Of a stretch of DNA of 45,407 bases, positions 1-45,407 are shown in pieces; position 1 is the stretch's first letter; each line of letters opens with the position of its first letter. This DNA is from a virus (lineage: Duplodnaviria > Caudoviricetes). The stretch is from IMG/VR virus record IMGVR_UViG_3300033489_000018, positions 1-45,407 of that record, one strand, 5' to 3'. The translations under genes were made by a program, and so were the position numbers. A model generated the notes under the pieces. That model worked only from the letters and a program-made list of their open reading frames with translations. It was not told the DNA's origin and searched no databases.

Positions 1-59
1 ATTACCTCAACGGCAAGCTCAACGACATCGATGGGGTCGCGGCAGTGCGCTGGTGGTAC
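1..59. repeat. Terminal direct repeat (circular assembly overlap), identical to 45349-45407
   Basis: Exact 59-nt match to the window end, including the variant ggggtcgcggcagtgcgc that no other repeat unit carries. Confidence 0.95.
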
Positions 60-290
60 GCCACCGGCCAGCTTCAGCGCGAGGAGCATTACAACGCCGG
101 CCAGCTGGCCGACATCGATGGTGTCGCGGCTAAGCGCTGGTGGTACCCCACCGGCCAGCCGCAGCGCGAGGAGCATTACCTCAACGGCAAGCTCAACGAC
201 ATCGATGGTGTCGCGGCTAAGCGCTGGTGGCACGCCACCGGCCAGCTTCAGCGCGAGGAGCATTACCTCAACGGCAAGCCAAAAAATTGA
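1..290 (+). CDS. 3' part of MORN/YwqK-like 29-aa repeat protein B (continues from 44865/45048 across the origin)
   Basis: In-frame continuation through the 59-nt overlap; repeats WWYxTGQxQREEHYLNGKLNDIDGVAAKR; TGA at 288-290. Confidence 0.9.
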   Translation, partial: YLNGKLNDIDGVAAVRWWYATGQLQREEHYNAGQLADIDGVAAKRWWYPTGQPQREEHYLNGKLNDIDGVAAKRWWHATGQLQREEHYLNGKPKN

Positions 291-295
291 TAACT

Positions 296-1870
296 ATGGA
301 GCTGCGAAAATACCAACAAGAGGCGGTGGACGCCGTACTCAACGAATTCGAAAAGGTGCGTAAAACCATCGTAATAATGGCGACTGGACTTGGCAAGACG
401 CAAATCTTCAGCGAGATTGCGCGCAGAACCAAGGGTAACATCTTGGTCCTCGCGCATCGCACCGAGTTGGTGAAACAGGCCCGGGACAGATTGACTGCGA
501 TAACTGGTGAGTGGATAGACGTAGAGCAGGCCTATCAGCGATCATACAGCGCGCGAATCGTTGTGGCCAGTGTGCAGACTTTGCAGCGTCAGGCTAGGCT
601 AGACAATTTTGCGGCCGATCATTTTTCGCTTGTGGTTTTCGACGAAGTTCATCATGCGGTGGCCAAGACATACCGCCGCCCGATTGATTATTTCTCCACT
701 GCTAAGGTTCTAGGGCTTACCGCTACCGCTGACCGGTTTGACGGGAAGGGGCTCGGTACGATATTCGAGTCGGTTGCGTATCGCATGGATATACTGGAGG
801 GGATAAACCAACAATGGCTAGTTCCCATCGTCGGCAAGTTAGTTCAGGTAGATAGTATTGATCTATCCACCATCAACAAGGTTGGGGCAGATCTCAACCA
901 AGGAATGCTGGACGTAGCCACGGTGAAGGCGGTAGAGGGGGTGGTACAGGGTATCCTAGAGCACGGCGAGGGGCGGCAAGGAATAGTCTTTTTCCCTGGC
1001 GTGACATCCGCAGAGCTGGCTTGTGCGCGCATGAGGTTCCTGAATCCATCGTATCGCTCCGAGTTTCTCTGTGCTACGACCGGTGAGACCGAGCGCGAGC
1101 TGATCGTTAGGGATTTTAAGGCCGGTAAGATCCGCTACTTATTCAACTGCATGATCGCCACCGAGGGGTTTGACGCTCCGCCGGTATCTCTGATCGCTTG
1201 CGCTAGGCCCACACTATCACGCGGCTTGTACACCCAAATGATAGGCAGAGGACTACGACGGTACGAAGGAAAATCGGATTGCTTGGTATTGGATTTTTGC
1301 GGCAATAGCGGCAAGTATTCCCTAATGTCGCCTATCGATGTACTGGGCAGCAGCTACACGTCAGAGGAGCGGGAACGGGCTAAGAAGCTCGCAAAAGAAA
1401 AACCTACGGCCGATCAGATAGCGCTACTGAACCAAGCGCGTGCGGAGCTGATGAAGGCCGCCGAGATGGAACGGGCTAGAGTAGCAGCACGAGTGCAGAA
1501 GTTCGATCCATTTGCCATACTCGATATTGCTGACGCTCCCAAACACGTATTGGGATATGGACACAAAAGCATGACGGCCGGGCAGCGGATGGCATTATCT
1601 AACATGGGTATTCCTGACAAGGTGTTGGCAGACTATGGATTCAAGGAAGCTTCCGTACTCATTGACAGGTTGATAGATAGACGCCACAAAGGGCTGGCGT
1701 CATATAAGCAACTGAAACAGATAAAGGCACGGCTTGGTATCAGTGTACCGAACATTACTAAGCAGTCGGCGAGCACTATCATGGATCGGCTTGCAAAAGC
1801 ACAGTGGCAACCCCGGCTTCTTTCACCGGATGATCGCAGTAAAATATCGGCGCTAGTGAAAGGACAATAA
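296..1870 (+). CDS. SF2 DEAD/DEAH-box helicase (ResIII + helicase C-terminal domain)
   Basis: LRKYQ Q-motif, ATGLGKT, DEVHH, TAT, EGFD, QMIGRGLR; start moved to ATG 296. Confidence 0.92.
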   Translation: MELRKYQQEAVDAVLNEFEKVRKTIVIMATGLGKTQIFSEIARRTKGNILVLAHRTELVKQARDRLTAITGEWIDVEQAYQRSYSARIVVASVQTLQRQARLDNFAADHFSLVVFDEVHHAVAKTYRRPIDYFSTAKVLGLTATADRFDGKGLGTIFESVAYRMDILEGINQQWLVPIVGKLVQVDSIDLSTINKVGADLNQGMLDVATVKAVEGVVQGILEHGEGRQGIVFFPGVTSAELACARMRFLNPSYRSEFLCATTGETERELIVRDFKAGKIRYLFNCMIATEGFDAPPVSLIACARPTLSRGLYTQMIGRGLRRYEGKSDCLVLDFCGNSGKYSLMSPIDVLGSSYTSEERERAKKLAKEKPTADQIALLNQARAELMKAAEMERARVAARVQKFDPFAILDIADAPKHVLGYGHKSMTAGQRMALSNMGIPDKVLADYGFKEASVLIDRLIDRRHKGLASYKQLKQIKARLGISVPNITKQSASTIMDRLAKAQWQPRLLSPDDRSKISALVKGQ

Positions 1871-2757: not shown

Positions 2758-4559
2758 TACGTGCAGAGAAAGCGCTTACTGTGGTGCCCGACACTCGTAA
2801 AACATACGGACATGCGACGCTTGTCGAAGAGGCGAACGGTCAGTACGTGCCGTTCACCTATGGGCAACGTCCGGCTTGGTGGAAGATTGAAGCTGAGCCG
2901 CAAGTGATGATTAAGTTGAAGCGGCTTTTTGGTCGCACGGATGTGCGGCAATTCGGGAGCATACGCTTGAGAGCCACGGACGAAGTGTGCCGTGATCTGC
3001 AGTGGTTTTGCGAGCGCTATCCGCTCGGCATAACACCTCGGGACCATCTCGATAAGCACGCGGCATTATACGAGCAGCAAAAAAAAGCCTTTTCCGAGAT
3101 TCTTTCTGGCGAGATTAGTCCACGCAAATTTGATCTCGCCATACCAGCGCGGGAATACCAAAAGGTGGCATCGGAGTTATGGCTACAGTCAAAGGGCGTG
3201 CTAGTCGCCGACGACGTTGGTATCGGTAAGACATTGGTCGCCATCGCCGCACTCACCCAACCAGAGACACGCCCAGCGCTCGTCGTTACGCTCTCGCATC
3301 TCCCTATTCAATGGGAGAGGGAGATTAAGAAGTTCGCGCCGGGACTAAAAACGCACATAATAAAAAAAGGTGCTCCCTACGATGTAACGCTTGTGCGCGG
3401 ACATAAAACGGATACGGGGCAAGGGAGGCTCTTCGCGGACAGATTCCCCGACGTGCTAATTACCAACTATCACAAGCTGGCTGGATGGGCCGAAACGCTC
3501 GGAGGAAAGATCCGAGGCGTTGTGTTCGATGAGTGCCAGGAGTTGCGGCGAGTTGAAAGCCAGAAGTACGCGGCGGCTAAACACATCGCTGAACATGCGG
3601 GATATGTACTCGGCACGTCGGCGACTCCAATCTATAACTACGGTGATGAGATGTTCAACGTCCTATCGGTGATTCGCCGAGATGTTTTAGGGACGCGTGA
3701 GGAGTTCCTTCGGGAGTGGTGTACGGGGGCGGGATGGTCGGGGAACGCAAAGATCACGAACCCAAAGGCATTCGGTTCCTATCTGCGCGACATGGGCGTC
3801 ATGATTCGTCGAACCAGGCGGGACGTCAACAGAGAGTTGCCACCGTTGACGAAGATACTGCATTACGTGGAAACCGATGTGCACGCGATCGACGCTATCG
3901 CAAGTGACGCCGCGGAGCTGGCGCGTATTATCCTATCACACAATTCGCCCACGTTGATTCGCGGTCAAGCATCGCGAGACCTGGACTGGAAGCTGCGGCA
4001 AGCGACCGGAATTGGCAAAGCATTGTACGTCGCCAATTTCGTTAAGATGCTAGTCGATAGCGGCGAGAAAGTTGTTCTATTCGGCTGGCATCGAGAGGTT
4101 TACTCGATTTGGGCCGAGCAACTGGCAGAGTACAAGCCTGTGTTTTTCACGGGGACAGAAAGCCCGAAGCAGAAGGATTCCGCGCGGGAGGCGTTCTGTG
4201 GCGGCGATGCCAGTATCCTAATCATGTCGCTTCGCGCCGGTGCCGGGCTTGACGGTTTGCAATACCACGCTAGGACCGTGGTGGTCGGCGAGCTTGATTG
4301 GTCGCCGGGAGTCCACGAGCAAAACGAAGGACGGATACTCCGCGATGGCCAGGTCGAACCAGTAGTCATCTATTATATGCTGAGCGAGGAAGGGAGCGAC
4401 CCTGTTGTCGCCGATACCCTCGGGCTGAAGCGCTCGCAGATCGACGGCATCCGAGATCCGAACGCTGAGCTTGTAGAGAAGCTAGAAGTGGACAGCGGTA
4501 GGATCAAACAGCTTGCCGCAGCCTATTTGAAACAACGAGGATTAGAACATGATAATTAA
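2754..4559 (+). CDS. SNF2-family helicase/ATPase
   Basis: ADDVGIGKT, DECQ, SATP, RRTR, GLDGLQ, QNEGRILRDGQ; ATGA overlap with the upstream gene. Confidence 0.92.
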   Translation: MIRAEKALTVVPDTRKTYGHATLVEEANGQYVPFTYGQRPAWWKIEAEPQVMIKLKRLFGRTDVRQFGSIRLRATDEVCRDLQWFCERYPLGITPRDHLDKHAALYEQQKKAFSEILSGEISPRKFDLAIPAREYQKVASELWLQSKGVLVADDVGIGKTLVAIAALTQPETRPALVVTLSHLPIQWEREIKKFAPGLKTHIIKKGAPYDVTLVRGHKTDTGQGRLFADRFPDVLITNYHKLAGWAETLGGKIRGVVFDECQELRRVESQKYAAAKHIAEHAGYVLGTSATPIYNYGDEMFNVLSVIRRDVLGTREEFLREWCTGAGWSGNAKITNPKAFGSYLRDMGVMIRRTRRDVNRELPPLTKILHYVETDVHAIDAIASDAAELARIILSHNSPTLIRGQASRDLDWKLRQATGIGKALYVANFVKMLVDSGEKVVLFGWHREVYSIWAEQLAEYKPVFFTGTESPKQKDSAREAFCGGDASILIMSLRAGAGLDGLQYHARTVVVGELDWSPGVHEQNEGRILRDGQVEPVVIYYMLSEEGSDPVVADTLGLKRSQIDGIRDPNAELVEKLEVDSGRIKQLAAAYLKQRGLEHDN

Positions 4560-16026: not shown

Positions 16027-17717
16027 TATGGATGTACTATTGTAGCTTCACTCAATAGATACCAGCCCAATGCAGTCGTAGAATGCTGAAGACAAACCGC
16101 TTCTATTAATCTTACTTCGTTTATGTTTATAGTAAACGGGCTAGTGGCTCCACTTATCGTTGGTAGCGTGATACTACCGCTTACAGCAGCTACGGTTTGG
16201 TATATAGCTATAATAACACGCGCTCCCGGTATGCCATATGCGGCAGATATACTTACCGCCTGGGCGGCATTGCTGGTACGCACCACAAAAAATATGCCGT
16301 AACAATCCGATGCTAGAGAGACATCTGTGTTGATTGCCTCGTACTTATACCCGTTATTCCTATCACACGAATAATTGCATATCGTTGCTAAATATGCCGA
16401 CAGCGTTTCGGACATACTTACCGCAGGAATGCATAACATGATATTGCCAGATGACGCGAACCCGTTTGACCCCCTGGTTACCGTATTGTTGCTATTAAAG
16501 GCATATACACTGACTAGTGCAGCGGCGCATGACGAAAAGTAACACCCGCTTACCGTTACTTCGCTTTCGTTGTTAGCGTCGTCAATGTCTACGTATATGA
16601 TTGTAGTCGCTACTGACGCTGTCAGCGCCGTAGCGTCAAACTTACATGCCGATATAATAGCTGTACCGTCCGTCCACAAAGCATAGGCTATCGTACCAGC
16701 GCCAATGGTTACAGGAAATACAAAGTCGCATTTAGTAACCGTGAGGGAGCCGGATGTGGATGCCGACGTAATGCCTAAATTATTTCCCGAGTCGCCTATC
16801 TTAAAATAGCAGCCCTCCACACCTATGTCATACGCAAAAGTAGGCCTACCGGTAATACAAGAGGCTCCTAGTGCCTCAAGTTTGTCGCCATCAAAATAAC
16901 AATCTACTACAGACAGTTTGGTTGCTGTGGCCACCCATATATATTGGCCAGCAGTCGATATGATATTGCTGCTAAAGCGTAAGTACCGGATCTCTTGTCT
17001 TCCCAATGTCATGGCGGGAGCCACTGTTTCTATTAGGTTTTCTGTTGCGTGGTCCAGTAACAGGATAGACGTACCGAACGGACTACCAAGCAGGTTCACG
17101 TTACCCGGCAACTGCAATGCCGAGGTTATACGAAACGTTCCTGGTGGGAAGTATATCGTGCCATCTACCGCAGCGGCCGCAGTAATAGCCAAAGCGATAG
17201 ACGTAGTGTCGTCTGTCGTTCCGTTGCCAACAGCCCCGTAGGCTGGGCTTGTTACATTAAATACTTGGAATGACGATAGTGTTCCAAGTGCCGTCGCTAG
17301 GCCGGTCGCAGCGCTATTGAATAGCACCTCGAAGTCATCAGCTCCCGCGCTGGTCTTCCACCGGTCCAGAATAGTTTGGAGCGATACGGGCTTATTCGCA
17401 CCCGTCGCGCCGGTATCGTAATCCACACCGGTAAAGCTCGGCCCGACGTACTCTACCAATGGGGACGAAGTCATATCGGTAAAGAACCGCACACGCGCGC
17501 CAGAGCTGGCTTTCACATCGATATCGACCGATTCGTTTACGTATACCGTCGCGCCGCCGTTGACGTCGAGCTGCACATCGGTACCAGTCGACACCGCATT
17601 CGAACCGATATAGTCGGTGTAGTACGTCGCGCGAGAAGACGTGTCGCGCCGATATATCTCGGCCGTGCCGCTTTCGGCTCCCTTTACTCCAGATGCTAAA
17701 ACAGAGATGAGATGCAC
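16026..17717 (-). CDS. tailspike with pectate-lyase-3-like beta-helix
   Basis: NVTSPAYGAVGNGTTDDTTSI..IYFPPGTFRI motif; N-terminal head-binding-like domain. Confidence 0.8.
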   Translation of the reverse strand: MHLISVLASGVKGAESGTAEIYRRDTSSRATYYTDYIGSNAVSTGTDVQLDVNGGATVYVNESVDIDVKASSGARVRFFTDMTSSPLVEYVGPSFTGVDYDTGATGANKPVSLQTILDRWKTSAGADDFEVLFNSAATGLATALGTLSSFQVFNVTSPAYGAVGNGTTDDTTSIALAITAAAAVDGTIYFPPGTFRITSALQLPGNVNLLGSPFGTSILLLDHATENLIETVAPAMTLGRQEIRYLRFSSNIISTAGQYIWVATATKLSVVDCYFDGDKLEALGASCITGRPTFAYDIGVEGCYFKIGDSGNNLGITSASTSGSLTVTKCDFVFPVTIGAGTIAYALWTDGTAIISACKFDATALTASVATTIIYVDIDDANNESEVTVSGCYFSSCAAALVSVYAFNSNNTVTRGSNGFASSGNIMLCIPAVSMSETLSAYLATICNYSCDRNNGYKYEAINTDVSLASDCYGIFFVVRTSNAAQAVSISAAYGIPGARVIIAIYQTVAAVSGSITLPTISGATSPFTININEVRLIEAVCLQHSTTALGWYLLSEATIVHP

Positions 17718-17727
17718 AAGAAGCCTC

Positions 17728-18543
17728 CTATATCGAGATGACTACGCTTGATTTCGACTCTTCCGGATTGATGTAACCCTTACCGGTATTCGAGTACACG
17801 TCGGCACCGTTGAGGAGCGTCATCCGGGTTAGGGCGAAATGAAAGAAACCCGTGCCACCGCCGTCGTATAGACGGATCGCGTTGCCAGAGAAGCCCGTGC
17901 CTATGCCGCTGTCGGCAATCACGCTATCCATCTGAATGCGGTTGTATCCGTCGAGTACGCCTATAACCTGGACGGCATACTTTGCCGAAGCCCCGGCTAC
18001 GATCTCCGTGTCGTTGATATCCAGGTTCAGCGTACCAGCGGCATATACGCCTTCCGCCGCTACGCCAACCGGCTCGAAGCGGCATCCGTTGACGCGGTAC
18101 GTTGGCGTCGTTGTCGCGCCTACTGTCGCACCGAAATACAGCATCTTATTCGTGCCTTTGAACTTTATGTTGCGGAAGTCTAAGTAGTACGAACACGTCG
18201 CCCCGGAATACGAAATGACCGAAAACCCAGCGGCATCAATCGTGGCCGTTGGCGAGCCGCTACTATTGCCTTCGCCGACTATCGTAAGCGATTTCGTCAT
18301 AGCCAGATCCGCGGCCAGAACTTCAGAATGGTCGCTTAACAATACGATGATATCCCAGTCAGAGGTAACGGCGTATGCAGCAGCTAGCGTCGCGAAAGGC
18401 CGGTTACGTTCCAATCCGTCATTGGTGTCCGAACCGCTTACGCTGCTAAGATAGAAAATATTCCCGGTGACGATAAGCGGCCGACAGGTTGCGAGAATAT
18501 TCCCGGTTTGTCCGCCAATTCCATACGGTAAAGTGCTACTCAT
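17728..18543 (-). CDS. beta-helix (pectin-lyase fold) virion protein
   Basis: FYLSSVSGSDTNDG..PFATLAAA..DII cap motif. Confidence 0.7.
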   Translation of the reverse strand: MSSTLPYGIGGQTGNILATCRPLIVTGNIFYLSSVSGSDTNDGLERNRPFATLAAAYAVTSDWDIIVLLSDHSEVLAADLAMTKSLTIVGEGNSSGSPTATIDAAGFSVISYSGATCSYYLDFRNIKFKGTNKMLYFGATVGATTTPTYRVNGCRFEPVGVAAEGVYAAGTLNLDINDTEIVAGASAKYAVQVIGVLDGYNRIQMDSVIADSGIGTGFSGNAIRLYDGGGTGFFHFALTRMTLLNGADVYSNTGKGYINPEESKSSVVISI

Positions 18544-18547
18544 CTAA

Positions 18548-19270
18548 TCAGCTCCATTGGGTTGGGTGTGAAAACGTCATCGTTTGCGGTGCGCTCTCGT
18601 TAGATAGGCCCTTGAGACCGCCCTTAAGTCTCTCGGCTTCTTTCGCTAGCCGGTCGCAGCGACCTGATGGAAGCGAGTTGGACATGGCCAGTCTATATGC
18701 CAGCCGCCATTCTAGGTATTCGGTCCAGGGTACCTGTAAATCTACCGTAGTATTGCCTGGAGACGTATCTGCAAATAGGCGGTTGATCTTGAGCCTAATC
18801 CAGCCAGTAATAGACGGAGGCGGCCAGACGAAGACGTTCAGTGGCACCGACATTCTGTAGACACAGTATTTTTCTGGATATCCGCGACTTTCCTTGTTGC
18901 TCAACACTTGCCACATGTTCAGGCTTATCGGCTCGACAAGATACTCAGAAGGAGCCTGGGTTATGTCGGTTACCGTAGAATCGAAAAACATCGCATCGCC
19001 AATGACGTCCAACGCATACGCAGGCAACGAGTACTGATGCACCCCGGCAACGATCGGAAGGTTATAAAGCACGACGGATCGCGCGAATAACCCTTCTGCA
19101 TGCAAGCTGTCAAGAACGCTATCGAGCAGATCCCGGCCAAGCGCGAGTTTCTCCGGCCATCCCGGCGGACTGGTGCGCTGACTAGCCTCGATCAACCCCG
19201 CCTGCAAATAGGCAGTGAGGATAATCTGGTCAATCGTCTTTTCCGTACCGCGTGTGGTAGAGACTGTCAT
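18548..19270 (-). CDS. head-tail adaptor (P22 gp4 / tubular protein A-like)
   Basis: TIDQIILTAY, GYPEKY, VWPPP, YLEWRLAYRLA motifs; position after the capsid genes. Confidence 0.7.
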   Translation of the reverse strand: MTVSTTRGTEKTIDQIILTAYLQAGLIEASQRTSPPGWPEKLALGRDLLDSVLDSLHAEGLFARSVVLYNLPIVAGVHQYSLPAYALDVIGDAMFFDSTVTDITQAPSEYLVEPISLNMWQVLSNKESRGYPEKYCVYRMSVPLNVFVWPPPSITGWIRLKINRLFADTSPGNTTVDLQVPWTEYLEWRLAYRLAMSNSLPSGRCDRLAKEAERLKGGLKGLSNESAPQTMTFSHPTQWS

Positions 19271-19284
19271 GCACGTTACCCCTA

Positions 19285-19316
19285 GCTCGGGAGCGTTGTC
19301 GCAAACGCCCCCGAGC
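19285..19316 (-). terminator. intergenic hairpin after the head genes (no U-tract; attenuator or stability element)
   Basis: gctcgggagcgtt ... aacgcccccgagc inverted repeat. Confidence 0.45.
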
Positions 19317-19330
19317 GGATTATGGCAACG

Positions 19331-20272
19331 TTACGCGGACTCGGTGCCGAATAGCGCTGCTCTTTCTGCGATCAGGTTGGCAACGGCGCAGTTCCTTCCG
19401 AACTGTATGTTGCCTGGCGTACTGAAGGCGCCGGTTAGAGCGCCGGCGGCGTCGCTCAATACACCCATGAACAGGTCGTCAACCATGCCGCCAATACCAG
19501 CCATGCCGGTAATGGCCTGCTCGGATGCGGCCTTGTTGTTGCGCACGGTAAGCTCCTTTATCAGAATGTCCGTCGAAGCCGTGGTTAGGAACCGGATGGG
19601 TCCTACGGCAACCGCACTCGTTGCGCATACGATGACGTTGTCTTGCATCAAAAGACGATCTGCACCCACAAGCTGAAGCATGGTCGTGCATTCAGCAGCG
19701 GTAGCAGCGTAGAGACGGTTTCCAGCAAGGGTGAGATCATCGGCAGCCGCTGTCGTAGTAATTCCGATGGTCACTTTGTTGTTGGCATCCGTACCAGCCA
19801 TGATCCGGTTGCCGATCAACGAGCACCCCTCAGCCGAAATCGTGATTGGGGCCGCGACGTTAATCGTGCCAGTTCCCGGCTCTAGCTTTAGAATGCAGTT
19901 CTGGATAGATACGTTTGCCACGTTTAGAAGGACCGTCGACAAAGCCGTGGTCCAGGTAAAGATAGGCCTAGCGTTGCCCGTGCCGATACCAATGATGTTA
20001 GTTCCAGCAACGAGATCGCTCCACGAATCAGCGGCCGCGATGTTTTCGGCATGCTCGGGCAGAACGAATACGTAGTCACCGCCGCCAGAACGGCATCTCT
20101 TAAGTGCCGCATTAACGGTGGTGACGAGGTTGTTCTTCACGTAGCTATCGTCACCGCTTTTCACGCCACCGGATCTGACAAATGCCGCTACGTTTGCGGT
20201 GGGAGGGATAAGAATCCCAAACCGCGTAGCCAACACGCTTTGATAGTTTCTGGGCATGTTATTGATACCCAT
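19331..20272 (-). CDS. beta-helix virion protein following the major capsid gene
   Basis: TVNAALKRC..GDYVFVLPEHAE..IIGIG..RP pattern, related to 17728-18543. Confidence 0.65.
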   Translation of the reverse strand: MGINNMPRNYQSVLATRFGILIPPTANVAAFVRSGGVKSGDDSYVKNNLVTTVNAALKRCRSGGGDYVFVLPEHAENIAAADSWSDLVAGTNIIGIGTGNARPIFTWTTALSTVLLNVANVSIQNCILKLEPGTGTINVAAPITISAEGCSLIGNRIMAGTDANNKVTIGITTTAAADDLTLAGNRLYAATAAECTTMLQLVGADRLLMQDNVIVCATSAVAVGPIRFLTTASTDILIKELTVRNNKAASEQAITGMAGIGGMVDDLFMGVLSDAAGALTGAFSTPGNIQFGRNCAVANLIAERAALFGTESA

Positions 20273-20273
20273 G

Positions 20274-21185
20274 TTACGCCTCTACACAGTAGAAAGTGCG
20301 GTAATCAGCGCAACCGTCATCCCACCGAGCCGTGGAGCTGTACACCATGCACTCATGGGGCTCGTCGACATAGGTCTTGCCGCGTGGCTTGCGATTCCAA
20401 ACCTTGGTAGGCCGGTTATCGCAATCCGTCTGTACCGCCCACTGAGTAGCGGAGCTGTTCCACCACGGGGTGGCTACCGGGTCGCCTTCGATACCGAGAT
20501 GCGCCTTGGATACCACGTTGATCCCCTGGTACGTTTCGGGAGAGTCCGCGGAGCCCAAGATGCCCTTCCATACGGCCCACTGGTCAGCAGGACATACGAT
20601 GCGCTTCGCTTGGTATCCTTCGATCGTCCCGTCATGGCCGACCATCTTCATGAGGTCCGTAACCGCCGTGCTAAGCGCGGTGATTGACGGGCTCAACGGG
20701 GTAGACATAACGTTAGACGCTGTGCCGCCATTAGGCAGAATATGCGAGGCACTCCCCAGCGGAAGGCCATCTGCCAGAGGATAACTCGTATTGAACATCC
20801 GGTTAAGAATGTCATGCGCGGTAACCTCTACGGTTTTCCAGACGGCACGCTTATTGCGCCGCGCCAAGTCGATCACTTCCTTGTACTTGCAGTCCTCGAT
20901 CGCCTCTTCAGTGATGATCATCCGAAGCCCGTATTTATTGGGCATGAACCGGGTCATCGGACCTTGGAACATACCTGCCTCTGGCACCTCGGTACCTTCA
21001 GGAATCTGGTAAGCGTAACCAGGACCCGCATATTCTTGGTAATCCGAATACGCCCCGTCGATGGTTTCCTCTGCCATCCATTTGCGATAATACAGCCCGC
21101 TCTCAATCTTATCGGCCTTGTCGTCGATAATTCCATCGAGAGTTTTTTGTAGGGTTGCCGCGTTAGTAGATCTAAAAATAGTCAT
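20274..21185 (-). CDS. major capsid protein (HK97 fold)
   Basis: 303 aa; PEG..P, YGLRMIITEEAIED, DGLPLGSASH, final R..GCADYR; gene order. Confidence 0.85.
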   Translation of the reverse strand: MTIFRSTNAATLQKTLDGIIDDKADKIESGLYYRKWMAEETIDGAYSDYQEYAGPGYAYQIPEGTEVPEAGMFQGPMTRFMPNKYGLRMIITEEAIEDCKYKEVIDLARRNKRAVWKTVEVTAHDILNRMFNTSYPLADGLPLGSASHILPNGGTASNVMSTPLSPSITALSTAVTDLMKMVGHDGTIEGYQAKRIVCPADQWAVWKGILGSADSPETYQGINVVSKAHLGIEGDPVATPWWNSSATQWAVQTDCDNRPTKVWNRKPRGKTYVDEPHECMVYSSTARWDDGCADYRTFYCVEA

Positions 21186-21198
21186 GGTTCATTCCTCT

Positions 21199-21843
21199 CT
21201 ATATACCGGCAACAATCGATGCGGAAGCAGCCGAAGCAGCCTCGCCGATCTCGTTGAATTGTACGAGTAGTTTAACGTACGAGCCGGAGAAATCCCGGTT
21301 ATGAACGCTACCGCTAATCCCAACAATGCGGCAACCAAGCGTGGCGGTATTCGCATGGAGAGATATATCCAGCATTGGATCTGCTGAAGAGTTAGTCGTA
21401 TTACCGGGAACTACGAACTCAGTATTCTCGTGTACCAAAGCCTCGTAGGCCGCCTTGGTGGTAGCCGTAACCTTATCGTCACAATCGACTTCCCAGGTAT
21501 AGGCACTCGCTGGCCAGCACAAGACATAGCCCCTGCGGGATTCCACGGTGCCCCAAGTGGTTTGATTGGGATAGTGCTTGCCTATCTTCATCACCCCATC
21601 GCCCGCGCTCCAGTACTGAGCCACGCCAGCGCATACCCACGACACGATAGTCGTAGTCGGTGCGACGATAACTCCACCTGTACTAACGTACAGTAGCGGA
21701 TCGCCTGCGTTGATATTTACGCTACCGGCCGCTGAGACATCGTTTTGCCCACTGGCTACGGACATCCGTACCGGTGGAACGAGCTTGGCGCCAGAGCGCA
21801 CGGCGTACGGTCGAAAGCCGTACAGATGCACATTATCAGCCAT
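21199..21843 (-). CDS. capsid decoration/cement protein
   Basis: MADN..YGFRP..I.AGDP pattern typical of the gene preceding this capsid type. Confidence 0.6.
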   Translation of the reverse strand: MADNVHLYGFRPYAVRSGAKLVPPVRMSVASGQNDVSAAGSVNINAGDPLLYVSTGGVIVAPTTTIVSWVCAGVAQYWSAGDGVMKIGKHYPNQTTWGTVESRRGYVLCWPASAYTWEVDCDDKVTATTKAAYEALVHENTEFVVPGNTTNSSADPMLDISLHANTATLGCRIVGISGSVHNRDFSGSYVKLLVQFNEIGEAASAASASIVAGI

Positions 21844-21845
21844 TG

Positions 21846-22319
21846 TTATTCTCCTCCATCAAGTGTTCCTACTGGCGGAGGGATGCGGACTTCGTGCTCT
21901 TCGATACGAATTCCCCGCCCCCCCGCGCGAATAGCTCTACTATCGGCGTCTTTGCGAGCACGCATACTATTGCGGATATTATCCAGCGTTTGCTGTCGAT
22001 CCGCCTGTTGCCGCGCGTACTCGTCTTTGGGTATGGACATGATGACGTTACCTCGCCAGGTAAGCGGGTCGCCATCCTTACATGTGATGCCTGTGGTAAG
22101 ATTCGGGCCGTCTTGGCGAGATTTCTCTATCTGATATCCTTCAGAGAAATACCTCTCAAGCGCCGTTTCGTCTTTGGCAAAGACCCCAACGTATCGACGC
22201 GTCGGATCTCCACCTACGATCTTGCCGCCGAAAGCCGTACCAGTAACATCCCTGGAAGTAGGCGGGTCTTTTCTTAAAACACTAGTCGGTTTCTTACGAA
22301 ATCCTCCGTAATCGGCCAT
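21846..22319 (-). CDS. conserved head-module hypothetical protein
   Basis: First gene behind the promoter at 22446-22474; EGY..VIMSIPK pattern. Confidence 0.65.
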   Translation of the reverse strand: MADYGGFRKKPTSVLRKDPPTSRDVTGTAFGGKIVGGDPTRRYVGVFAKDETALERYFSEGYQIEKSRQDGPNLTTGITCKDGDPLTWRGNVIMSIPKDEYARQQADRQQTLDNIRNSMRARKDADSRAIRAGGRGIRIEEHEVRIPPPVGTLDGGE

Positions 22320-22474: not shown

Positions 22475-22580
22475 CTAAATATTAGGTAGTGTATCAGTTT
22501 GCGGTGCATTACATCGATTAAAAGACGATGGGAAAATTAAAAAGGTTGGCAGGGGGGCATATCGGCTAAGCACTTAAAAC

Positions 22581-22637: not shown

Positions 22638-22664
22638 TACAAGCTCTACAAGCTCTACAAGCTC
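22638..22664. repeat. 3x tandem tacaagctc
   Basis: Seen directly. Confidence 0.9.
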
Positions 22665-22847
22665 TTTATACCACCGATACGATCACCTCGCAACCAATTC
22701 GCGTTTATGTATCGGAACCGCAGCGACGTCTTTATGTTCTGGGGATAAAGGCATGCATACTACGATAGGCCACATGCCCTCCCACATCAAAAAACTGGTC
22801 AGTCATCTCAAACTCCCTAAAAATCCAAACTGATACACTACCAAATA

Positions 22848-23075
22848 TTAATGCGGCAACGGTATAACGGCGCTTTCGGTGCCCCACATTATGACAAGCG
22901 TAAGCGGAACTAATACAATGTTTTCGCCTACTTGTACCACTAGTTGTCCGCCTGCTTTGTCTACAGTTATTTTCGCGTTGGCAGGCACGCATTCTTTGCT
23001 AATGCAAACCAACGGATCGCGTGACCACGGAACCGGAATGGGGTAGATGGGTATGAACTGGTTAACGTTTATCAT
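22848..23075 (-). CDS. hypothetical protein
   Basis: Overlaps the stop of the scaffold gene; same strand as the operon. Confidence 0.55.
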   Translation of the reverse strand: MINVNQFIPIYPIPVPWSRDPLVCISKECVPANAKITVDKAGGQLVVQVGENIVLVPLTLVIMWGTESAVIPLPH

Positions 23076-37268: not shown

Positions 37269-38847
37269 AAATCACCTTCTTGAGGTTATGAGCCCACGGG
37301 CAAAGGTGGCAAAACCGTATAATGAAGCGGTATCCCTTACCCGCGGACTCATCTCCTCAAAAATGAAGTTTGCTTCATTACGTTTTGCCATTCAAGAAGC
37401 TTAGCTCACCCCAAAAACGAAGTCAAGCAACATTACAAAATCTCAGGGAGATCTCCCCTACAAAACGGAGACGAAAAATCGAACCGCATAGATTGTACGC
37501 TTCGATGTTTCAAGCTCCTCGGATCTGCGTTGTCTTCCCAGGTTTTTTTTTTTTTCTGGGCCGTCAGCCGTGTTCTAGAACCACCCGTCGCGCCGATTTA
37601 CACCAAACTGACAAATCGTGTGAGTTGATGTAGGGAAATTGTTCCCGAGGCGGCTTGGTTGCATAGGGTGAGCGGATGTAGGTAAATGTGAACCACACCC
37701 CCTTGCATGCTATGCTTAGTATTAAGCTTTACTAGCTTTAACCTAGGAAAGCAGCAAGGAAGTGTTTGCAATCTTGAGGAAATGTAAGCATTAAGCATAA
37801 GCATTTAACCTAGTCATCCTATACATAATTAACTTACCTAGTTAATCATTATTATTAATACATGGTCAAAAACGTAACATTTGGAAAATCTGTACTATCG
37901 TGATTTAATTTTTTTACCCCTAAACCCCTAAAGTTCGCTGGGGGGTGGCCCCCGACCAATGGGTACCCCGGCTCCCCCCGGGTTTTGTCCGGCCGGGCAT
38001 TGCACGTTTCTTGCACAGTGATGAGCCTGAGGCTAGCGCGTGACGTGTGAGCAGCGTTGAACGCGGTAGCAGTGATGAACGTAGCGGCAGTGTTTGGTGT
38101 AGCAGGTGAGCACGATGAACTTATAGGCAGTGATGTCTTTTTGAGCAGCACTGTTTTAGGACATAGGGGTACCTGGGTTTTGCTGGTAGGCACGACCGGG
38201 TTTAGGCGCTACACCTACACCGACTTACTGAACGGCGATATAATAGGGGTGATAAAGCGGTTTGTGGCGTGACACATTGGTAGGAGTGGCCGTTTTGGAC
38301 AGTGGTGTGCAACGGGTTGCGCAGTGTCTGGTTACGGATGGGCAGGTGACAAAATGTCACACGATGACGATTGAAGCGGAGATACCACGCCGTGGCAATC
38401 CATTGACCGACTTAGGCAATCCATTGACGAACACCACTAGACCACTACAGGTTGTGCCAGACGGCGCGAAATACTACAGGTGGTGGTGCCTTGGAGTGGA
38501 GGGGGCGAAGAGGGGATGGCCAACCACAACGCTGACACCGAGCAATGTAACAGTGGTATTAGGTCATAGCAGTGATTGTAGATTAAAGACTACGTGCAAA
38601 GTCCACTGCACACTTTAGGGATTCTGTTCACTATAGTTTAGCGCACGTTTTTGCACAGTTGCACAGTGGTACGCAACTTTTAGCCAGGCTTTGGCCTAAA
38701 TGCCAGATTAGCGTGTAATTACGGGTACTTACGTGGTACGCAAGATTTAGCGTAAGGTGACGTTATTTGTCACCGATTTAGCGCAGTTTATTGCACAAGT
38801 TATAGGGTATTGATGGGGTATTTATGTGTTTTGGCGGGTTATTGAAT

Positions 38848-38865
38848 TTGGCACGTCTGATGCAA
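38848..38865 (+). promoter_or_regulatory. sigma54 (-24/-12) promoter at the start of the early arm
   Basis: TTGGCACGTCTGATGCAA: TGGCACG plus GC at exact GG-N10-GC spacing. Confidence 0.65.
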
Positions 38866-38876
38866 TGCATATGGGC

Positions 38877-39095
38877 ATGGACAACGCGATGAAAAAAATA
38901 GTGGACGGACGTAGCGCGAACCAGTGGGTCGACGGGTGGACGGACGTAGGGAGGCTCACTGAGGCACTGCTGGTCCGCGCGATTAGGAGCGTAGGGCGTG
39001 GCGATGCGGGTAGGATAGAGGCGACCAGGGCCCTGGAGGGAAGGCTAGCAGAAATGGTATCGTTGCGCGAGTGGCACGAGTGGCACGAGCGCTAG
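38877..39095 (+). CDS. early hypothetical protein
   Basis: First ORF after the promoter; start uncertain (38871/38877/38889). Confidence 0.55.
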   Translation: MDNAMKKIVDGRSANQWVDGWTDVGRLTEALLVRAIRSVGRGDAGRIEATRALEGRLAEMVSLREWHEWHER

Positions 39096-39105
39096 GAGGG
39101 ACATC

Positions 39106-39321
39106 ATGGACAACACAACGAGAATAACGTTGAACGATATTAGCCGTGAGGCACGAGCAGCTAGAGCGGCGGTAAAAAAGAGCCAGCCAGGGAGAGAGCT
39201 GAAGTTTGGTGCGCCGTACGTGGTAGCCAAGGGAGACCGATTGCAGCTAGTGGTCGAGTACACGTGCTTGGACGACATCGACGGCCGATTAATGGAATTA
39301 TCCTACACGGTGGCACTATGA
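39106..39321 (+). CDS. early hypothetical protein
   Basis: aggagg SD. Confidence 0.7.
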   Translation: MDNTTRITLNDISREARAARAAVKKSQPGRELKFGAPYVVAKGDRLQLVVEYTCLDDIDGRLMELSYTVAL

Positions 39322-40336: not shown

Positions 40337-40614
40337 ATGCAATCAATAACAACGAAACACCTATCACCAACTAATCAGCGCGGAAAACGCGTCAAGGCAA
40401 CCTCGTCCAGCGGGGAATACATCATTTCGAGAACCATCTACGCGCCGCGCAAGCACTGTGCCGTAAGCACAAGTGGTGCGCCGACTGTATAGCCAGTGGT
40501 ACGCGGGACGGTTTCATCTTCGTGGTGTACCGACTGTACAGCGATGATCGACCCCGCAAGGTGTGGGTCAAGGCACGGGTGCATAAGGTCGGGCGTTTTC
40601 CCGCGCGCAAATAG
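40337..40614 (+). pseudogene. frameshifted early gene
   Basis: MQSITTKHLSPTNQRGKRVKAT.. continues in the -1 frame near 40426 as FENHLRAAQALCRKHKW..DGFIFV. Confidence 0.65.
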
Positions 40615-40659
40615 CTTTTGGCTTGACACAATATTACTAATACAATAGAAGGAGAAATA
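40573..40659 (+). repeat. 87-bp promoter/RBS cassette, copy 1
   Basis: 83/87 identical to 41881-41967; contains TTGACA, TACAAT and AAGGAG. Confidence 0.92.
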
Positions 40660-40661
40660 AG

Positions 40662-41165
40662 ATGGAAAAAATCAGAACAGAGAGACAGTATCGGGTGAAG
40701 ATGAGTGATGACGGCGGATCGAGCGAGACAGAGGACACGATGATCCCGGAGGGGACCGAGTCGGAGCAGGATGCAGCGGCTCAGGACTGGGCGCGAGAAT
40801 CGGCCGAGGACTGGGCGCGAGAGGGCGAGTGGGGCGATGATGGAGCAATGGTACGCGTGTACTACACCCTATCGGATCAGTGCAGCGAGTGGCCGCGTGA
40901 TAGCGTAGATGTAGAGATCGAGCCCGCCCATGCGGAGCTAATCCGCGCCGCTGGCGGGGATACCGAGTGCGAGCACGAGTGGACATCCGAGGGTGAGGGC
41001 GGATGCGACGAGAATCCGGGAGTGTGGAGCACGGGCGGTACCGCGCTGATGATATCCGAGCATTGCGAGATCTGCGGGCTGCGCCGCACTAGGCATCTCA
41101 CCGGATCGCAGCGTAATCCCGGAGAGCACGATACCGTGGAGTACTCAGTGCCAGCCGCCAACTAA
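40662..41165 (+). CDS. highly acidic early protein with C-terminal Cys/His cluster
   Basis: D/E-rich; CEHEW..C.ENPGVW..HCEICG. Confidence 0.8.
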   Translation: MEKIRTERQYRVKMSDDGGSSETEDTMIPEGTESEQDAAAQDWARESAEDWAREGEWGDDGAMVRVYYTLSDQCSEWPRDSVDVEIEPAHAELIRAAGGDTECEHEWTSEGEGGCDENPGVWSTGGTALMISEHCEICGLRRTRHLTGSQRNPGEHDTVEYSVPAAN

Positions 41166-41638: not shown

Positions 41639-41880
41639 AACCAACGACGTGTGTTTCTTGTACGCTAGACACCTCAGCTCTCCAGCCGACGGCGGGACTA
41701 ATGATTGTAGATTCGTGGATAAACATACCAGGCTGGGATACAAGGACTACCGCGCTCTGGCGCAGATATCAGCGGGGAATACCGGATACACGCCAGAAGG
41801 TTTCGAAAAGAATCTCCTCACCTCGACAGCTAGCCCATGGGGATGGATTTTTGTGCTTGAATAGAAAGGTGTGTTCCGCC

Positions 41881-41967
41881 GCACGGGGGCACAAGGTTGG
41901 GCGTTTTCCCGCGCGTAAATAGCTTTTGGCTTGACACAATATTACTAATACAATAGAAGGAGAAATA
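41881..41967 (+). repeat. 87-bp promoter/RBS cassette, copy 2
   Basis: Matches 40573-40659. Confidence 0.92.
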
Positions 41968-41969
41968 GA

Positions 41970-42221
41970 ATGAAGACTGTAAAATACGCGAAGGAGTTCA
42001 CTCTCTCCGTAAAAATGAAGTGTACCAATCCGGGGACTCCCGGCAACATGGTGGGCCCACCTGAGCGATGTTATCCGCCAGAGCCAGCGGAATTCGAGGT
42101 GGAGCACGTCCACCTACTATCTGATGACGGCGCAGTGCTCGCGCATTTGCCGACAGACGTACTCGACGAAGACGATCTTGAAGCGCTAAACGAATTGGCC
42201 ATGGAAGGAGATGATTTATGA
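41970..42221 (+). CDS. small acidic early protein
   Basis: PPERCYPPEPAEFEV; acidic tail. Confidence 0.8.
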   Translation: MKTVKYAKEFTLSVKMKCTNPGTPGNMVGPPERCYPPEPAEFEVEHVHLLSDDGAVLAHLPTDVLDEDDLEALNELAMEGDDL

Positions 42222-42475: not shown

Positions 42476-42852
42476 TGGATAGGTTCAAGCGGACGAAAGC
42501 AATAGAGCGGGCAGTAAGCAAATTTCACGATCGCATGGAGCGTTACATCCGGTATTACCCGCTCACCGTAACCAAATACCACTATTTGTGTGATGCAGGT
42601 GCCGATTGGGACGCGGAGTCTTATCATTTATGCGGGGGGTATGTGCCGAACATCGACGGCATAGGCTGCAAATATGAAGATTGCGATAGATGTGATTACG
42701 ACAAACATCAAGGCATTCCAGGCGACAATGAAATCACTGGCGAGCAAGCGGTGGAGTTCATTAGAAAACAGGAAGCTGAATACATGAGGAAAGAGCGAAG
42801 ATATATATATGAAGAAAAACTACTAGAAAGGCAAAAGTTATGGGGATACTAA
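42475..42852 (+). CDS. hypothetical protein with Cys cluster
   Basis: gggag SD, TAATG overlap. Confidence 0.7.
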   Translation: MDRFKRTKAIERAVSKFHDRMERYIRYYPLTVTKYHYLCDAGADWDAESYHLCGGYVPNIDGIGCKYEDCDRCDYDKHQGIPGDNEITGEQAVEFIRKQEAEYMRKERRYIYEEKLLERQKLWGY

Positions 42853-43652
42853 AGGAAACCTACAACGAAAACTTAGCGCTGAATTTCTCTACGCTAAAGT
42901 ACTTGGAAATTAGTCCGCTAGCGTACAAACACAATCTTACTCATCCCAAGGAGCAGACTACGGCCATGGCACTCGGTACCGCTGTTCACTGTTGTGCGCT
43001 ACAGGGCCCTGACATCTACTCGCGGCGCTTTCCAGTGTGGCATGGAGATAGGAGAGGTAAAGAATACACGGCTTTCAAAGCGAGTCGGCCCGATGATGCT
43101 ATCATCCTGAAAGATACCGAAGATGCATCGGTGCGAGCAAGCGCCGAAGCCATTCATAAAAAGATCGATGTCGCGGAATATGATACCGAGCAGCCGCTAT
43201 ACTGGTCATCTAACGGCGTGCAACTGAAATCAAGGCTAGACGGTGTAGCCAAGACACGTAAGGGCATGCTGGAGCTAAAGTGTGTCTCGTTTGCATACAT
43301 GGATCCATACAAGTTCTCTTCACATGTGTTATCTATGCAGTGGCACGCTCAGCTTGCCATGTACCATGATGCCATGTTATTCAACGGCTATGATCCGTTA
43401 CCAGTGCGGCTCGTAGTGGCGGAATTCACCGCGCCATACGACGTGGTTGTTTATGACGTTCCCCAAGATGTGATCGATTGCGGTAGGAAAACCTACTTGC
43501 GGTGGATTGATGTGTATAACGAGTGTGCTCGCGCCAATAAGTGGGGTGCAGGGCGCTCGGTGGACAACGTGACGCTGCGCTTGCCTGCATATGCGTACAA
43601 CAACAACGATAAACTAGGGTTAACTATAGAAGGTGAGGAGGTTGATTTATAA
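42840..43652 (+). CDS. RecE/exonuclease VIII-like PD-(D/E)XK nuclease (DUF3799-like)
   Basis: STLK, GTAVH, EQPLYW, KSRLD, ELK, QLAMY. Confidence 0.85.
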   Translation: MGILKETYNENLALNFSTLKYLEISPLAYKHNLTHPKEQTTAMALGTAVHCCALQGPDIYSRRFPVWHGDRRGKEYTAFKASRPDDAIILKDTEDASVRASAEAIHKKIDVAEYDTEQPLYWSSNGVQLKSRLDGVAKTRKGMLELKCVSFAYMDPYKFSSHVLSMQWHAQLAMYHDAMLFNGYDPLPVRLVVAEFTAPYDVVVYDVPQDVIDCGRKTYLRWIDVYNECARANKWGAGRSVDNVTLRLPAYAYNNNDKLGLTIEGEEVDL

Positions 43653-44110
43653 TGGGACATTACAGACTGTTATTCCCATCGGATTATGTTGGAGCGTGGG
43701 ACTTGCCCGACGATAAAACGGTAACGATAGAAAAGATAAGGTTGGAGGAACTTCGTGTGATAGGCGGAAAGTCCGAGAATAAACCGATTGCCTATTTCAA
43801 GGGGGCAACAAAACGCATGGTGCTGAACAAGACTAATTGCAAAACCATTGCGGCGCTTTACGGTACGGACACGTCCGCGTGGATGGGTAAGGCTGTCACA
43901 CTATTTGCTACCACATGCAGCGGCAAGGGGGGCGATGTGGTGGAGTGCATACGAGTTAGACCATGTAAACCATCGCGCTGTCCAACGACTAAGCCAGGAA
44001 CCGATCCGGAGCGATTGAATACAGAGACATCAGCCGCTGCCGATTGCGATGGCGAATACGCTGTACTAGAAGATGAAACCATCGGCTACCAAGAAGGAGA
44101 AACAGAATGA
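43652..44110 (+). CDS. putative ssDNA-binding/recombination accessory protein
   Basis: SDYVGAWDL..LNKTN..WMGK.VTL..CIRVR with an acidic tail; coupled to the exonuclease. Confidence 0.6.
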   Translation: MGHYRLLFPSDYVGAWDLPDDKTVTIEKIRLEELRVIGGKSENKPIAYFKGATKRMVLNKTNCKTIAALYGTDTSAWMGKAVTLFATTCSGKGGDVVECIRVRPCKPSRCPTTKPGTDPERLNTETSAAADCDGEYAVLEDETIGYQEGETE

Positions 44111-44868
44111 AGATCACGAAGGAATTATTAATCAAGAACGGCGCTTGTGCGGGGCAGGTCGAGTTATTTGAGAAGGTGTTCCCCGATGGGCGCGACTGCC
44201 CCGGGGACAACGCCGCGGCGACCAAGGCGGGACTCAACGCGGCGTGGACAATGCGCAGGTTCGAACTCACCGGCTGCGTCCGCGGGTGGCACGACACCGG
44301 CCAGCTATCGAGCGAGGAGCATTACCTCAGCGGTCGGCTCAACGACATCGATGGTGTCGCCGCCGTCCGCTGGTGGCACCCCACCGGCCAGCCGAAGGCC
44401 GAGGCGCATTACCTCAACGGCCTGCTCAACGACGTGGACGGCATCGCGGCAGCGCGCGGGTGGCACGACACCGGCCAGCTATTGCGCGAGGAGCATTACA
44501 AGGACGGCCTGCTCAACGACGCAGACGGCATCGCGGCAGCGCGCGGGTGGCACGACACCGGCCAGCCGGAGTACGAGGCGTATTACCTCAACGGTAAGAC
44601 GAACGACATCGATGGTGTCGCCGCCGTCCGCGGGTGGCACGACACCGGCCAGCTATTGCGCGAGGCGCATTACCTCAACGGCCAGCGCAACGACATCGAT
44701 GGTGTCGCCGCCGTCCGCGGGTGGCACGACACCGGCCAGCCGAGTCACGAGGAGCATTACCTCAACGGCCAGCGCAACGACATCGATGGTGTCGCCGCCG
44801 TCCGCCGGTGGCACCTAGACGGCACCCCGCAGCGCGAGGAGCATTACAGGGACGGGGGGATGCAATGA
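44107..44868 (+). CDS. MORN/YwqK-like 29-aa repeat protein A
   Basis: 59-aa N-domain, 6 full repeats and 1 partial repeat (xWHxTGQxxxExHYLNGxxNDIDGVAAxR). Confidence 0.9.
   Translation: MKITKELLIKNGACAGQVELFEKVFPDGRDCPGDNAAATKAGLNAAWTMRRFELTGCVRGWHDTGQLSSEEHYLSGRLNDIDGVAAVRWWHPTGQPKAEAHYLNGLLNDVDGIAAARGWHDTGQLLREEHYKDGLLNDADGIAAARGWHDTGQPEYEAYYLNGKTNDIDGVAAVRGWHDTGQLLREAHYLNGQRNDIDGVAAVRGWHDTGQPSHEEHYLNGQRNDIDGVAAVRRWHLDGTPQREEHYRDGGMQ
44284..44865 (+). repeat. 87-bp tandem coding repeat array A
   Basis: Units start at 44284, 44371, 44458, 44545, 44632, 44719, 44806. Confidence 0.95.
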
Positions 44869-45407
44869 CCGACGAATTAAACACCCTGGACATACTCGAA
44901 ATGATCAAAAAAGCGATAAAGCTACAGAAGAAAAGCCATAAAGGAACGCGCGGGATCATAGCCGCAGCGTGTCGGCTGGTAGCGGCGGAGAATCCCGAAC
45001 TGGATGCCGAGTATCCACGTCGTGCCGCTGAAGGAGAATCACGAATCATGAAGATCACGAAGGCATTATTAATCGAGCACGGCGCGTGCAAGGAGCAAAT
45101 CGAGTTATTCGCGCGGGTGTTCCCCGACGGGCGCGACTGCCCGGCGGACAACGACGCGGCGACCAAAGCCGGGCTGGACGCGGGCTGGACAATGCGCAGG
45201 TTCGAACTCACCGGCTGCGTCCGCTCGTGGTACCCCACCGGCCAGCCGAAGGCCGAGGAGCATTACCTCAACGGCAAGCTCAACGACATCGATGGTGTCG
45301 CGGCTAAGCGCGGGTGGCACGACACCGGCCAGCCTTGGTACGAGGAGCATTACCTCAACGGCAAGCTCAACGACATCGATGGGGTCGCGGCAGTGCGCTG
45401 GTGGTAC
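44865..45407 (+). CDS. 5' part of repeat protein B (ATG 44865 in frame with ATG 45048; ends at 290)
   Basis: Open frame from 44865; MKITKALLIEHGAC.. at 45048 is paralogous to gene A; repeat units at 45225, 45312, 45399(=51), 138, 225. Confidence 0.88.
   Translation, partial: MTDELNTLDILEMIKKAIKLQKKSHKGTRGIIAAACRLVAAENPELDAEYPRRAAEGESRIMKITKALLIEHGACKEQIELFARVFPDGRDCPADNDAATKAGLDAGWTMRRFELTGCVRSWYPTGQPKAEEHYLNGKLNDIDGVAAKRGWHDTGQPWYEEHYLNGKLNDIDGVAAVRWWY
45349..45407. repeat. Terminal direct repeat, identical to 1-59
   Basis: Exact match. Confidence 0.95.

Follow-up and report, generated by a model that had tools for sequence, protein, structure and literature searches.

Tandem MORN_2-type repeat genes in a soil phage, probably shuffled and multiplied by recombination

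What has rearranged two adjacent repeat genes of a soil phage, and what might their products do? The genes, here called A and B, lie in IMG/VR virus record IMGVR_UViG_3300033489_000018, the whole 45,407-nucleotide (nt) stretch of which was analysed and is referred to as the window. Both encode the same N-terminal domain (N-domain), followed by tandem units of 29 amino acids (aa). A reading made from the sequence alone had proposed a shuffled repertoire of binding proteins, coupled to recombination genes and perhaps neutralising host toxins or defence proteins. We find that recombination has probably both shuffled the units and amplified the genes. That A and B are paralogs acting in the infected cell as predicted variable binders of host proteins is a reading we put forward tentatively, by analogy, with near-neutral churn of the repeats as its main rival.

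The position of A, the N-domain shared with B and the units of 29 aa or 87 bp were all borne out in the record (Table 1). The first 59 codons of the two genes are 86% identical in DNA. Gene B comprises 196 aa once the window ends are joined over a 59-nt overlap, and its array in the record holds four full units and one partial unit with a repeat period of 87 nt. The seven and five units first counted hold for the record if partial last units are included, but the count for B is unreliable because several copies have likely been collapsed into it. Residues 8-10 of successive units read LSS, PKA, LLR, PEY, LLR, PSH and PQR in A and PKA, PWY, LQR, PQR and LQR in B, exactly as listed from sequence, and the DNA blocks said to be identical in both genes span 27 nt (A2/B1) and 21 nt (A7/B4). 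A longer shared block, of 39 nt, lies at the border of N-domain and array and, from its sequence, is likely a conversion or crossover tract. The positions named as variable (1, 3-4, 8-10, 18-19 and 28) do vary, but the list was incomplete and lacked 12, 15, 16 and 22. In unit A6 the PSH slot (44740-44748) differs from PEY of A4 in a way that suggests a compensated shift, by loss of one base and gain of another, instead of point changes.

Exchange among units is indicated by their mosaicism. The ten full units of A and B give a codon-level pairwise homoplasy index (PHI) p of 0.008, and incompatibility affects 52% of informative site pairs; 462 matched clonal simulations had a median of 11% and did not exceed 46%. 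The 25 units of a second phage, G002, which has five paralogs, give a PHI p of 0.007, and 22 of them have their nearest unit in another paralog. Unit number also differs inside a 90% cluster, where P0036 and P0156 are distinguished by one 30-aa unit and by slot order; two other 90% clusters show no array difference. The proposed shuffling is upheld by the tests in both phages and by this difference in unit number. Also in G002, N-domain halves and arrays look exchanged between paralogs.

Amplification is suggested by contig depth. The region was found in two runs, X1 and X2, both from one soil metagenome sample, and their contigs were placed on positions 43000-45407 and 1-900. Depth data came from 32 of 83 contig pieces, and 28 were used after dropping four that repeat contigs already counted. 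The single-copy baseline of X1 is 13.3; the flanks are long unbranched contigs (2337 nt at 11.2 and 7464 nt at 14.2), and three GC-rich pieces of A stand at 13, 15.3 and 12.7. Relative to this baseline, pieces that are each single-copy in the record stand at 2.3-fold (44785-45015), 1.9-fold (44986-45041) and 2.7-fold (both the end of the B N-domain and the core of unit B3, 63-126), and a piece of A at 44711-44777 is raised as well, 1.6-fold. In X2, with a baseline of 3.75, a 499-nt contig covering 44785-45283 stands at 2.0-fold. The contigs also hold junctions that are missing from the record: in X1 the first unit of B continues with an LQR slot, the B3 core has three different continuations, of which two stand at single-copy depth, and in both runs an A-type continuation follows a B-type unit. 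No listed loose contig end leads outside both arrays and their N-domains.

The block that joins the last unit of A, the 61-codon frame and the head of B is likely repeated in tandem in the real genome. On the simplest reading, the real locus consists of A followed by 2-3 copies of the 61 codons plus a B-type gene, the inner copies ending in the last unit of A; unequal crossover between the A and B arrays would yield such hybrids, with the head of B and the tail of A. The record likely collapses these 2-3 copies, and since its circle also closes inside the B array, the number and order of B units are unreliable. It had been asked whether B is an assembly chimera of A. It is not, although its sequence in the record likely runs through several B-type copies that assembly has collapsed.

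Several observations weigh against recombination and amplification as read here. PHI on the six units of A alone gives p 0.056, and a chimeric B would by itself raise the mosaic signal. The downstream flank of X2 is itself at 1.7-fold baseline, so that the evidence from this run is weak, and all evidence from X1 and X2 consists of contigs rather than reads, from a single sample. It might then be that mosaic and extra depth reflect an assembly artefact, or strains sharing the block, and that the phage really carries just two repeat genes of an ordinary kind. Such an explanation would fit the closure of the circle inside the B array and the disagreement of the runs with the record and with each other at the first unit of B and at 45064 (contigs and record differ by single bases at 45064 and 127). 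We nevertheless consider it quite improbable: the X1 flanks are unbranched at single depth, GC-rich pieces of A lie at 12.7-15.3, no listed loose end leads elsewhere, mosaic paralog clusters recur in other phages, and unit number varies within a 90% cluster. Co-occurring strains in this one sample are a less likely source of the extra depth and junctions.

The repeats belong to a recognizable fold. A hidden Markov model (HMM) of MORN_2 (PF07661; cut-off 29.6 bits) scores 74.9 bits on A and 31.4 and 51.2 on the two halves of B. The period of 29 aa lies outside the usual MORN_2 spacing of 22-24 aa; the units contain the 22-aa motif plus an additional loop, like P0010, P0017 and P0036, and we therefore class them as a long-period MORN_2 variant. 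A single-sequence fold of A was poor, with a predicted local distance difference test score (pLDDT) of 58.7, and an AlphaFold model built from a 21-sequence alignment was used instead. Its mean pLDDT is 94.7, and it shows four helices (residues 5-51) followed by hairpins with a 29-residue period. The best fold matches are MORN1, junctophilin, radial-spoke MORN proteins and single-layer OspA sheets, and those in BFVD include 'MORN variant, uncultured Caudovirales phage' (E 4e-16). Each unit is thus predicted to be one beta-hairpin of a single-layer sheet. In each modelled hairpin a four-residue strand (28, 29, 1, 2) faces a five-residue strand (8-12), which would place a bulge at 9/10 and pair W2 with L/P8, R29 with E11, 1 with 9/10, and 28 with 12. 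In G002 the R29/E11 pair appears swapped as E/R and the same slots vary, which supports this register. The variable slots would accordingly share one face of the model, the open one (28, 1, 3, 9/10 and 12), opposite a fixed face formed by W2, L/P8, R29, E11 and H13.

The N-domain, first given as 59 aa, is shared by A and B as claimed, but its folded helical part covers only about residues 1-55, and residues 56-61 form the first strand in the model. It may be a distant relative of YdhT_N. Residues 1-56 reach template modelling (TM) scores of 0.70-0.74 against ESM Atlas clusters carrying YdhT_N, below the naming bar of the Atlas, and hhalign against the YdhT N-terminus gives a probability of 57% (E 1.1e-4, 31 columns) with alignment A2 but only 2.4% with alignment A1. 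Our own N-domain HMM does not match YdhT, which is also without the conserved Cys-x-x-Gln of the N-domain. An 80-member Atlas cluster, 93% viral, is auto-named MORN variant/YdhT N-terminal and has a feature score of 0.85; we treat it as a lead only. The N-domain alone has no match in the Pfam copy searched (PF27195, the YdhT_N family, is known here from Atlas output, Pfam 38.1), no PHROG family beyond single marginal rows, and no hit in a word-indexed search. A match of residues 2-54 to a SAM domain (Z 4.5, rank 47) lies within background and was rejected. For A and B there was no PADLOC or NCBIfam match, and no PDB sequence relative was found.

Selection differs between the two faces. Nonsynonymous diversity (pN) is 0.06 on the scaffold face and 0.42 on the open face in the window, and 0.08 and 0.42 at the same slots in G002. 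The scaffold face is under purifying selection. The ratio of open-face pN to synonymous diversity (pS) elsewhere is 1.67 in the window (95% interval 0.79-4.04) and 1.24 in G002 (0.78-2.04; 22 units), so the slots are at least unconstrained, and with both intervals spanning 1, diversifying selection is beyond these data. The variable set of the sequence-only reading gives a pN/pS of 1.77, which we do not count, the set having been picked for being variable.

These ratios bear on the main rival to the binder reading, near-neutral churn of the repeats, in which the N-domain carries the function, or the gene brings little benefit, and the tail is a generic rod or stabiliser. Both intervals include 1, and neutral tolerance fits equally. 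Diversity at some synonymous sites (0.69-0.73) is as high as that at the slots (0.69-0.78). Further, the same N-domain mostly occurs with 11-aa helical tails, and some members are nearly tailless, so the fold of the tail may not matter. All of this counts against variable binding. In 22 of 27 tailed loci (two duplicates among them), GC at third codon positions (GC3) is higher in the tail than in the genes around it, which fits a sequence-level process such as biased conversion, and GC-biased conversion among repeats may underlie high tail GC3. Churn sits less well with the strong conservation of the scaffold face, charge-swapped pair included, with the open frames kept in all copies seen of multi-copy clusters, or with the rarity of changes in tail type described below; extra copies would also cost space in a 45-kb genome. 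We regard churn as possible but somewhat unlikely.

The genes do stand out in composition. As first noted, A and B are richer in GC (0.66 and 0.64) than the genome (0.52), and their GC3 of 0.85 and 0.84 compares with 0.55 and 0.50 for the pair of genes upstream. GC3 is also raised (0.65-0.70) in other early-region frames, 38826-39321 and 40662-41165, and A and B are therefore the most extreme case within a region of patchy GC content. Codons 9 and 10 vary at their first two bases while the third is nearly fixed (C in all units at codon 10, G in 11 of 12 units at codon 9), a pattern that could recall the target of a diversity-generating retroelement. High GC3 explains the fixed third bases, however, and the same slot alleles recur across units. 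No reverse transcriptase was found in the window record, G001 (a relative of the window phage) or G002, which led us to reject a target in cis, and the listed repeat families include no further copy of the 87-nt unit, beyond those in A and B, that could serve as template. A retroelement origin is exceedingly improbable.

Relatives place the pair in a wider family. A full phmmer search returned 1677 representatives, mostly matched via the repeats; among 150 matches listed, 19 that extend into the N-domain were aligned. N-domain conservation was taken from alignment A1, and the invariant columns of A2, forced by the search pattern, were left unused. A motif scan of IMG/VR gave 44 contigs, 38 of which encode the N-domain by HMM and 30 of which remain after removal of near-identical ones. 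Their tails are 11-aa helical repeats in about 20, 24-aa MORN_2 units in two and LRV in one, the rest being short, unclear or truncated. Eight of the 30 distinct phage contigs carry two to seven copies of the N-domain gene. On a tree of 65 rows, built on few columns and with rough support, paralogs group by phage, a sign of homogenisation or of repeated, independent expansion. The tree has 7 changes of tail type compared with 24.9 for shuffled labels, so that tail swaps appear rare. A GTDB scan gave 18 stretches with four convincing N-domain members, none with a MORN tail. A metagenome pattern scan gave ten stretches (five chance matches, three from G002-type phage and two with the window's own sequence), none of which was counted as new evidence. 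No relatives of gene A, the helicase or the 61-codon frame were found in IMG/VR, the terminase as query matched one distant locus there, and tblastn searches of GenBank phages with A and with its N-domain each yielded a single weak match. RNA data listed included no holder of the region.

Other members of the family were observed along the way. In two other phages, tandem paralogs with the same N-domain and 11-aa helical tails number seven (L005, 4470-7430) and five (L032, 4777-7946). L026 (5316-6086), P0164 and P0165 encode proteins of 256, 127 and 140 aa with the same N-domain, and either repeat number varies between these records or assembly has collapsed some of them. An 82-aa MORN-only gene without the N-domain lies in L076 (5043-5288), near a G002-type fifth copy. 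Matches to phrog_7713/31265 stand beside family members at L010 4741-5544, L011 1064-1528 and L020 4974-5525, and in two of these loci a single protein contains several such stretches; these neighbours are possibly a second repeat family adjoining the N-domain family.

The setting of A and B raises the question of whether they serve the recombination genes beside them. Stop/start overlaps link the exonuclease, the 152-aa gene, A and the 61-codon frame, and 5 nt separate B from the helicase. The order first proposed, exonuclease, single-stranded DNA (ssDNA) protein, A, B and helicase, is right in its coupling, but missed the 61-codon frame between A and B. One run contig spans this frame without gaps; B also has its own AAGGAG ribosome-binding motif ahead of 45048, and the frame is either an N-terminal extension of B or a gene fused to it. 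No relative of it was found in Pfam, PHROGs or IMG/VR. The label of the ssDNA protein proved to be positional only. The PHROG matches of the 152-aa protein, phrog_21613 and phrog_11517, are both unknown-function families, Pfam and NCBIfam gave no match, and its sole PDB match, to a single-stranded-DNA-binding protein (SSB), is weak (E 0.057); a role in ssDNA binding or annealing is putative, inferred from gene position. Of a Red/RecET-like pair, the locus holds the RecE-like exonuclease.

Elsewhere this link is less regular. A PHROG scan covered 268 of 279 neighbour frames at 31 of 33 loci (two duplicates dropped) on 30 contigs. Exonuclease, Erf or Gam matches lie nearby in 4 of the 30 contigs, a lower bound as many flanks are short, and phmmer with the window's exonuclease and 152-aa protein found no match in the 33 neighbour loci. 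The best support for the proposed link comes from G002 (17447-22100; L008/L066), where four MORN paralogs, arranged as two pairs, bracket Erf and exonuclease; exonuclease, Erf or Gam matches also lie close by in L004, L010 and L011. G001 has main structural genes colinear with those of the window at 37-60% identity, and its N-domain is the sister of the window's, with weak support (81/81). Its pair of genes, with 24-aa units, lies near an SSB gene upstream of the terminase region, on a fragment without the exonuclease region. Coupling to recombination genes thus stands at this locus and in G002 but is not general, and family members sit in the early or replication region as a rule, without a specific tie to recombination genes. 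A and B might still be accessories of the recombination or replication module, for instance as an acidic DNA mimic or Gam-like protector blocking nucleases of the host, or by partnering the annealing protein. The translational coupling from exonuclease to helicase, the arrangement in G002 and the array net charge of A (-14) would suit such a role. The B array is nearly neutral (-2), however, variable slots are of no obvious use to a mimic, and the link is found in few contigs and differs in the closest relative; we judge an accessory role improbable.

We thus return to A and B as predicted variable binders. The architecture, the mosaic units and the multi-copy clusters in other phages are observed. 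Unequal crossover between the A and B arrays would have duplicated the block and made hybrids with B heads and A tails, as contig depth and junctions suggest, and the real locus would then hold about 3-4 genes. The adjacent exonuclease and the presumed annealing protein are candidates for catalysing this crossover. By analogy, the open face would bind host proteins, for example defence or toxin proteins, and shuffling would widen the set of partners. That the whole family, an anchor domain on a repeat rod, amounts to a recombination-driven binder library, in which crossovers within the repeats would at once add genes and create hybrids and so supply each phage population with a changing decoy panel against host defence or toxin proteins that needs no reverse transcriptase, invertase or other dedicated machinery, seems unlikely to us.

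If A and B are such binders, small phages would have a simple route to diversify intracellular binding surfaces, and the unstudied N-domain, multiplied in 8 of 30 contigs, would point to counter-defence genes not recognised before. Should the variation be neutral, the locus still illustrates that end repeats can earn a record the rating of complete while several paralogs lie collapsed in it, if its circle is closed within a coding repeat. The window is such a record, rated complete and carrying end repeats. It encodes SU10-type portal and adaptor genes plus a capsid gene and therefore stems from a tailed phage, probably short-tailed to judge by these genes.

Table 1. Positions of the repeat genes and of associated features in the window.
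Feature	Position	Strand	Remarks
PD-(D/E)XK exonuclease, exonuclease VIII/RecE-like, 270 aa	42840..43652	+	PF12684 49.8 bits (cut-off 26); phrog_412 E 1.5e-35
152-aa protein	43652..44110	+	phrog_21613 (unknown function) E 9.7e-21
Gene A, 253 aa	44107..44868	+	helical N-domain, then six full and one partial 29-aa MORN_2-type units
Gene A N-domain, residues 1-55	44107..44271	+	four helices; conserved T4, C14, F21, P26, G28, W47; possibly YdhT_N-like
39-nt tract identical in A and B	44245..44283 and 45186-45224	+	border of N-domain and array
Gene A 87-bp repeat array	44284..44868	+	run contigs cover 44254-44546 by overlapping pieces
Block of A last unit, 61-codon frame and B head	44785..45283	+	about 2-2.7x single-copy depth
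61-codon frame	44865..45047	+	GC3 0.52; overlaps A stop; no stop before B, continues in frame into B
Gene B 5' part	45048..45407	+	N-domain and units B1-B2
End overlap, 59 nt	45349..45407 = window 1-59	+	circle closure falls inside gene B array
Gene B 3' part	60..290	+	units B3-B5 and stop; order uncertain
Superfamily 2 helicase (ResIII + Helicase_C)	296..1870	+	profile matches

Further features were seen in the window outside the locus. A second superfamily 2 helicase, of the SNF2 type (2655-4559), lies in the same gene run as the ResIII-type one, with a phrog_5928 gene (2401-2757) between them. A 107-nt direct repeat, 89% identical, at 40558-40664 and 41866-41972 ends in a promoter-like site, ribosome-binding site and start codon, and its two copies are, by sequence, likely duplicated early promoters. 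Upstream of the capsid gene region, a 24-nt inverted repeat (96%; 22478-22501 and 22826-22849, 324 nt apart) encloses a 9-nt tandem repeat (22638-22665).

Papers on this phage family were not found in a literature search that was light on subscription journals and without supplements, and several known systems offer comparison. MORN_2 proteins of tailed phages and giant viruses share the predicted hairpin sheet and the HMM, which scores above cut-off in A and B. They differ from A and B in that the latter have a 29-aa period with an extra loop (24 aa in the G001 and G002 relatives), and are tandem paralogs with mosaicism at the DNA level and no signal peptide. Multigene families of MORN proteins are reported from giant viruses (PMC5753266).

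The homolog P0001 bears the label 'antitoxin component YwqK', which MORN_2 proteins usually receive automatically and which recalls YwqK of the Bacillus subtilis YwqJK pair. The antitoxin reading of A and B rests on this annotation. Their neighbours are the exonuclease, the 152-aa protein, the 61-codon frame and the helicase, with no toxin gene adjacent, and we rejected a YwqK-type pair; A and B also lack an NCBIfam match and differ in their extra N-domain and several mosaic copies. YwqK itself binds and co-purifies with the YwqJ toxin domain, in a source whose passages on it leave MORN unmentioned (10.64898/2026.09.29.755374). For YdhT of E. coli, whose N-terminal domain (PF27195) may resemble residues 1-56, no paper on function turned up in the literature search.

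Fusobacterium MORN2 genes are described as many and variable, with repeat recombination proposed as the source of variation and function unknown; 87% have signal peptides, and the proteins are thought to be surface adhesins (PMC4222103). A and B, in contrast, sit in a phage DNA-metabolism gene run and have no hydrophobic segment (top 19-residue hydropathy 0.54-0.72, with no dedicated signal-peptide predictor used); this hydropathy argues against a signal or membrane segment, and a Fusobacterium-type surface protein was rejected. For binding by such a sheet, junctophilin offers a precedent, its MORN sheet being reported to bind a peptide on the concave side (PMC8916002). Phage Rad52-like recombinases are reported to tolerate diverged substrates (PMC3945230), and in gene accordions copy number is changed via recombination between repeated genes (PMC7360770). 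The locus described here would differ from such accordions in that the crossovers fall inside protein repeats, and each amplification would also build a hybrid protein.

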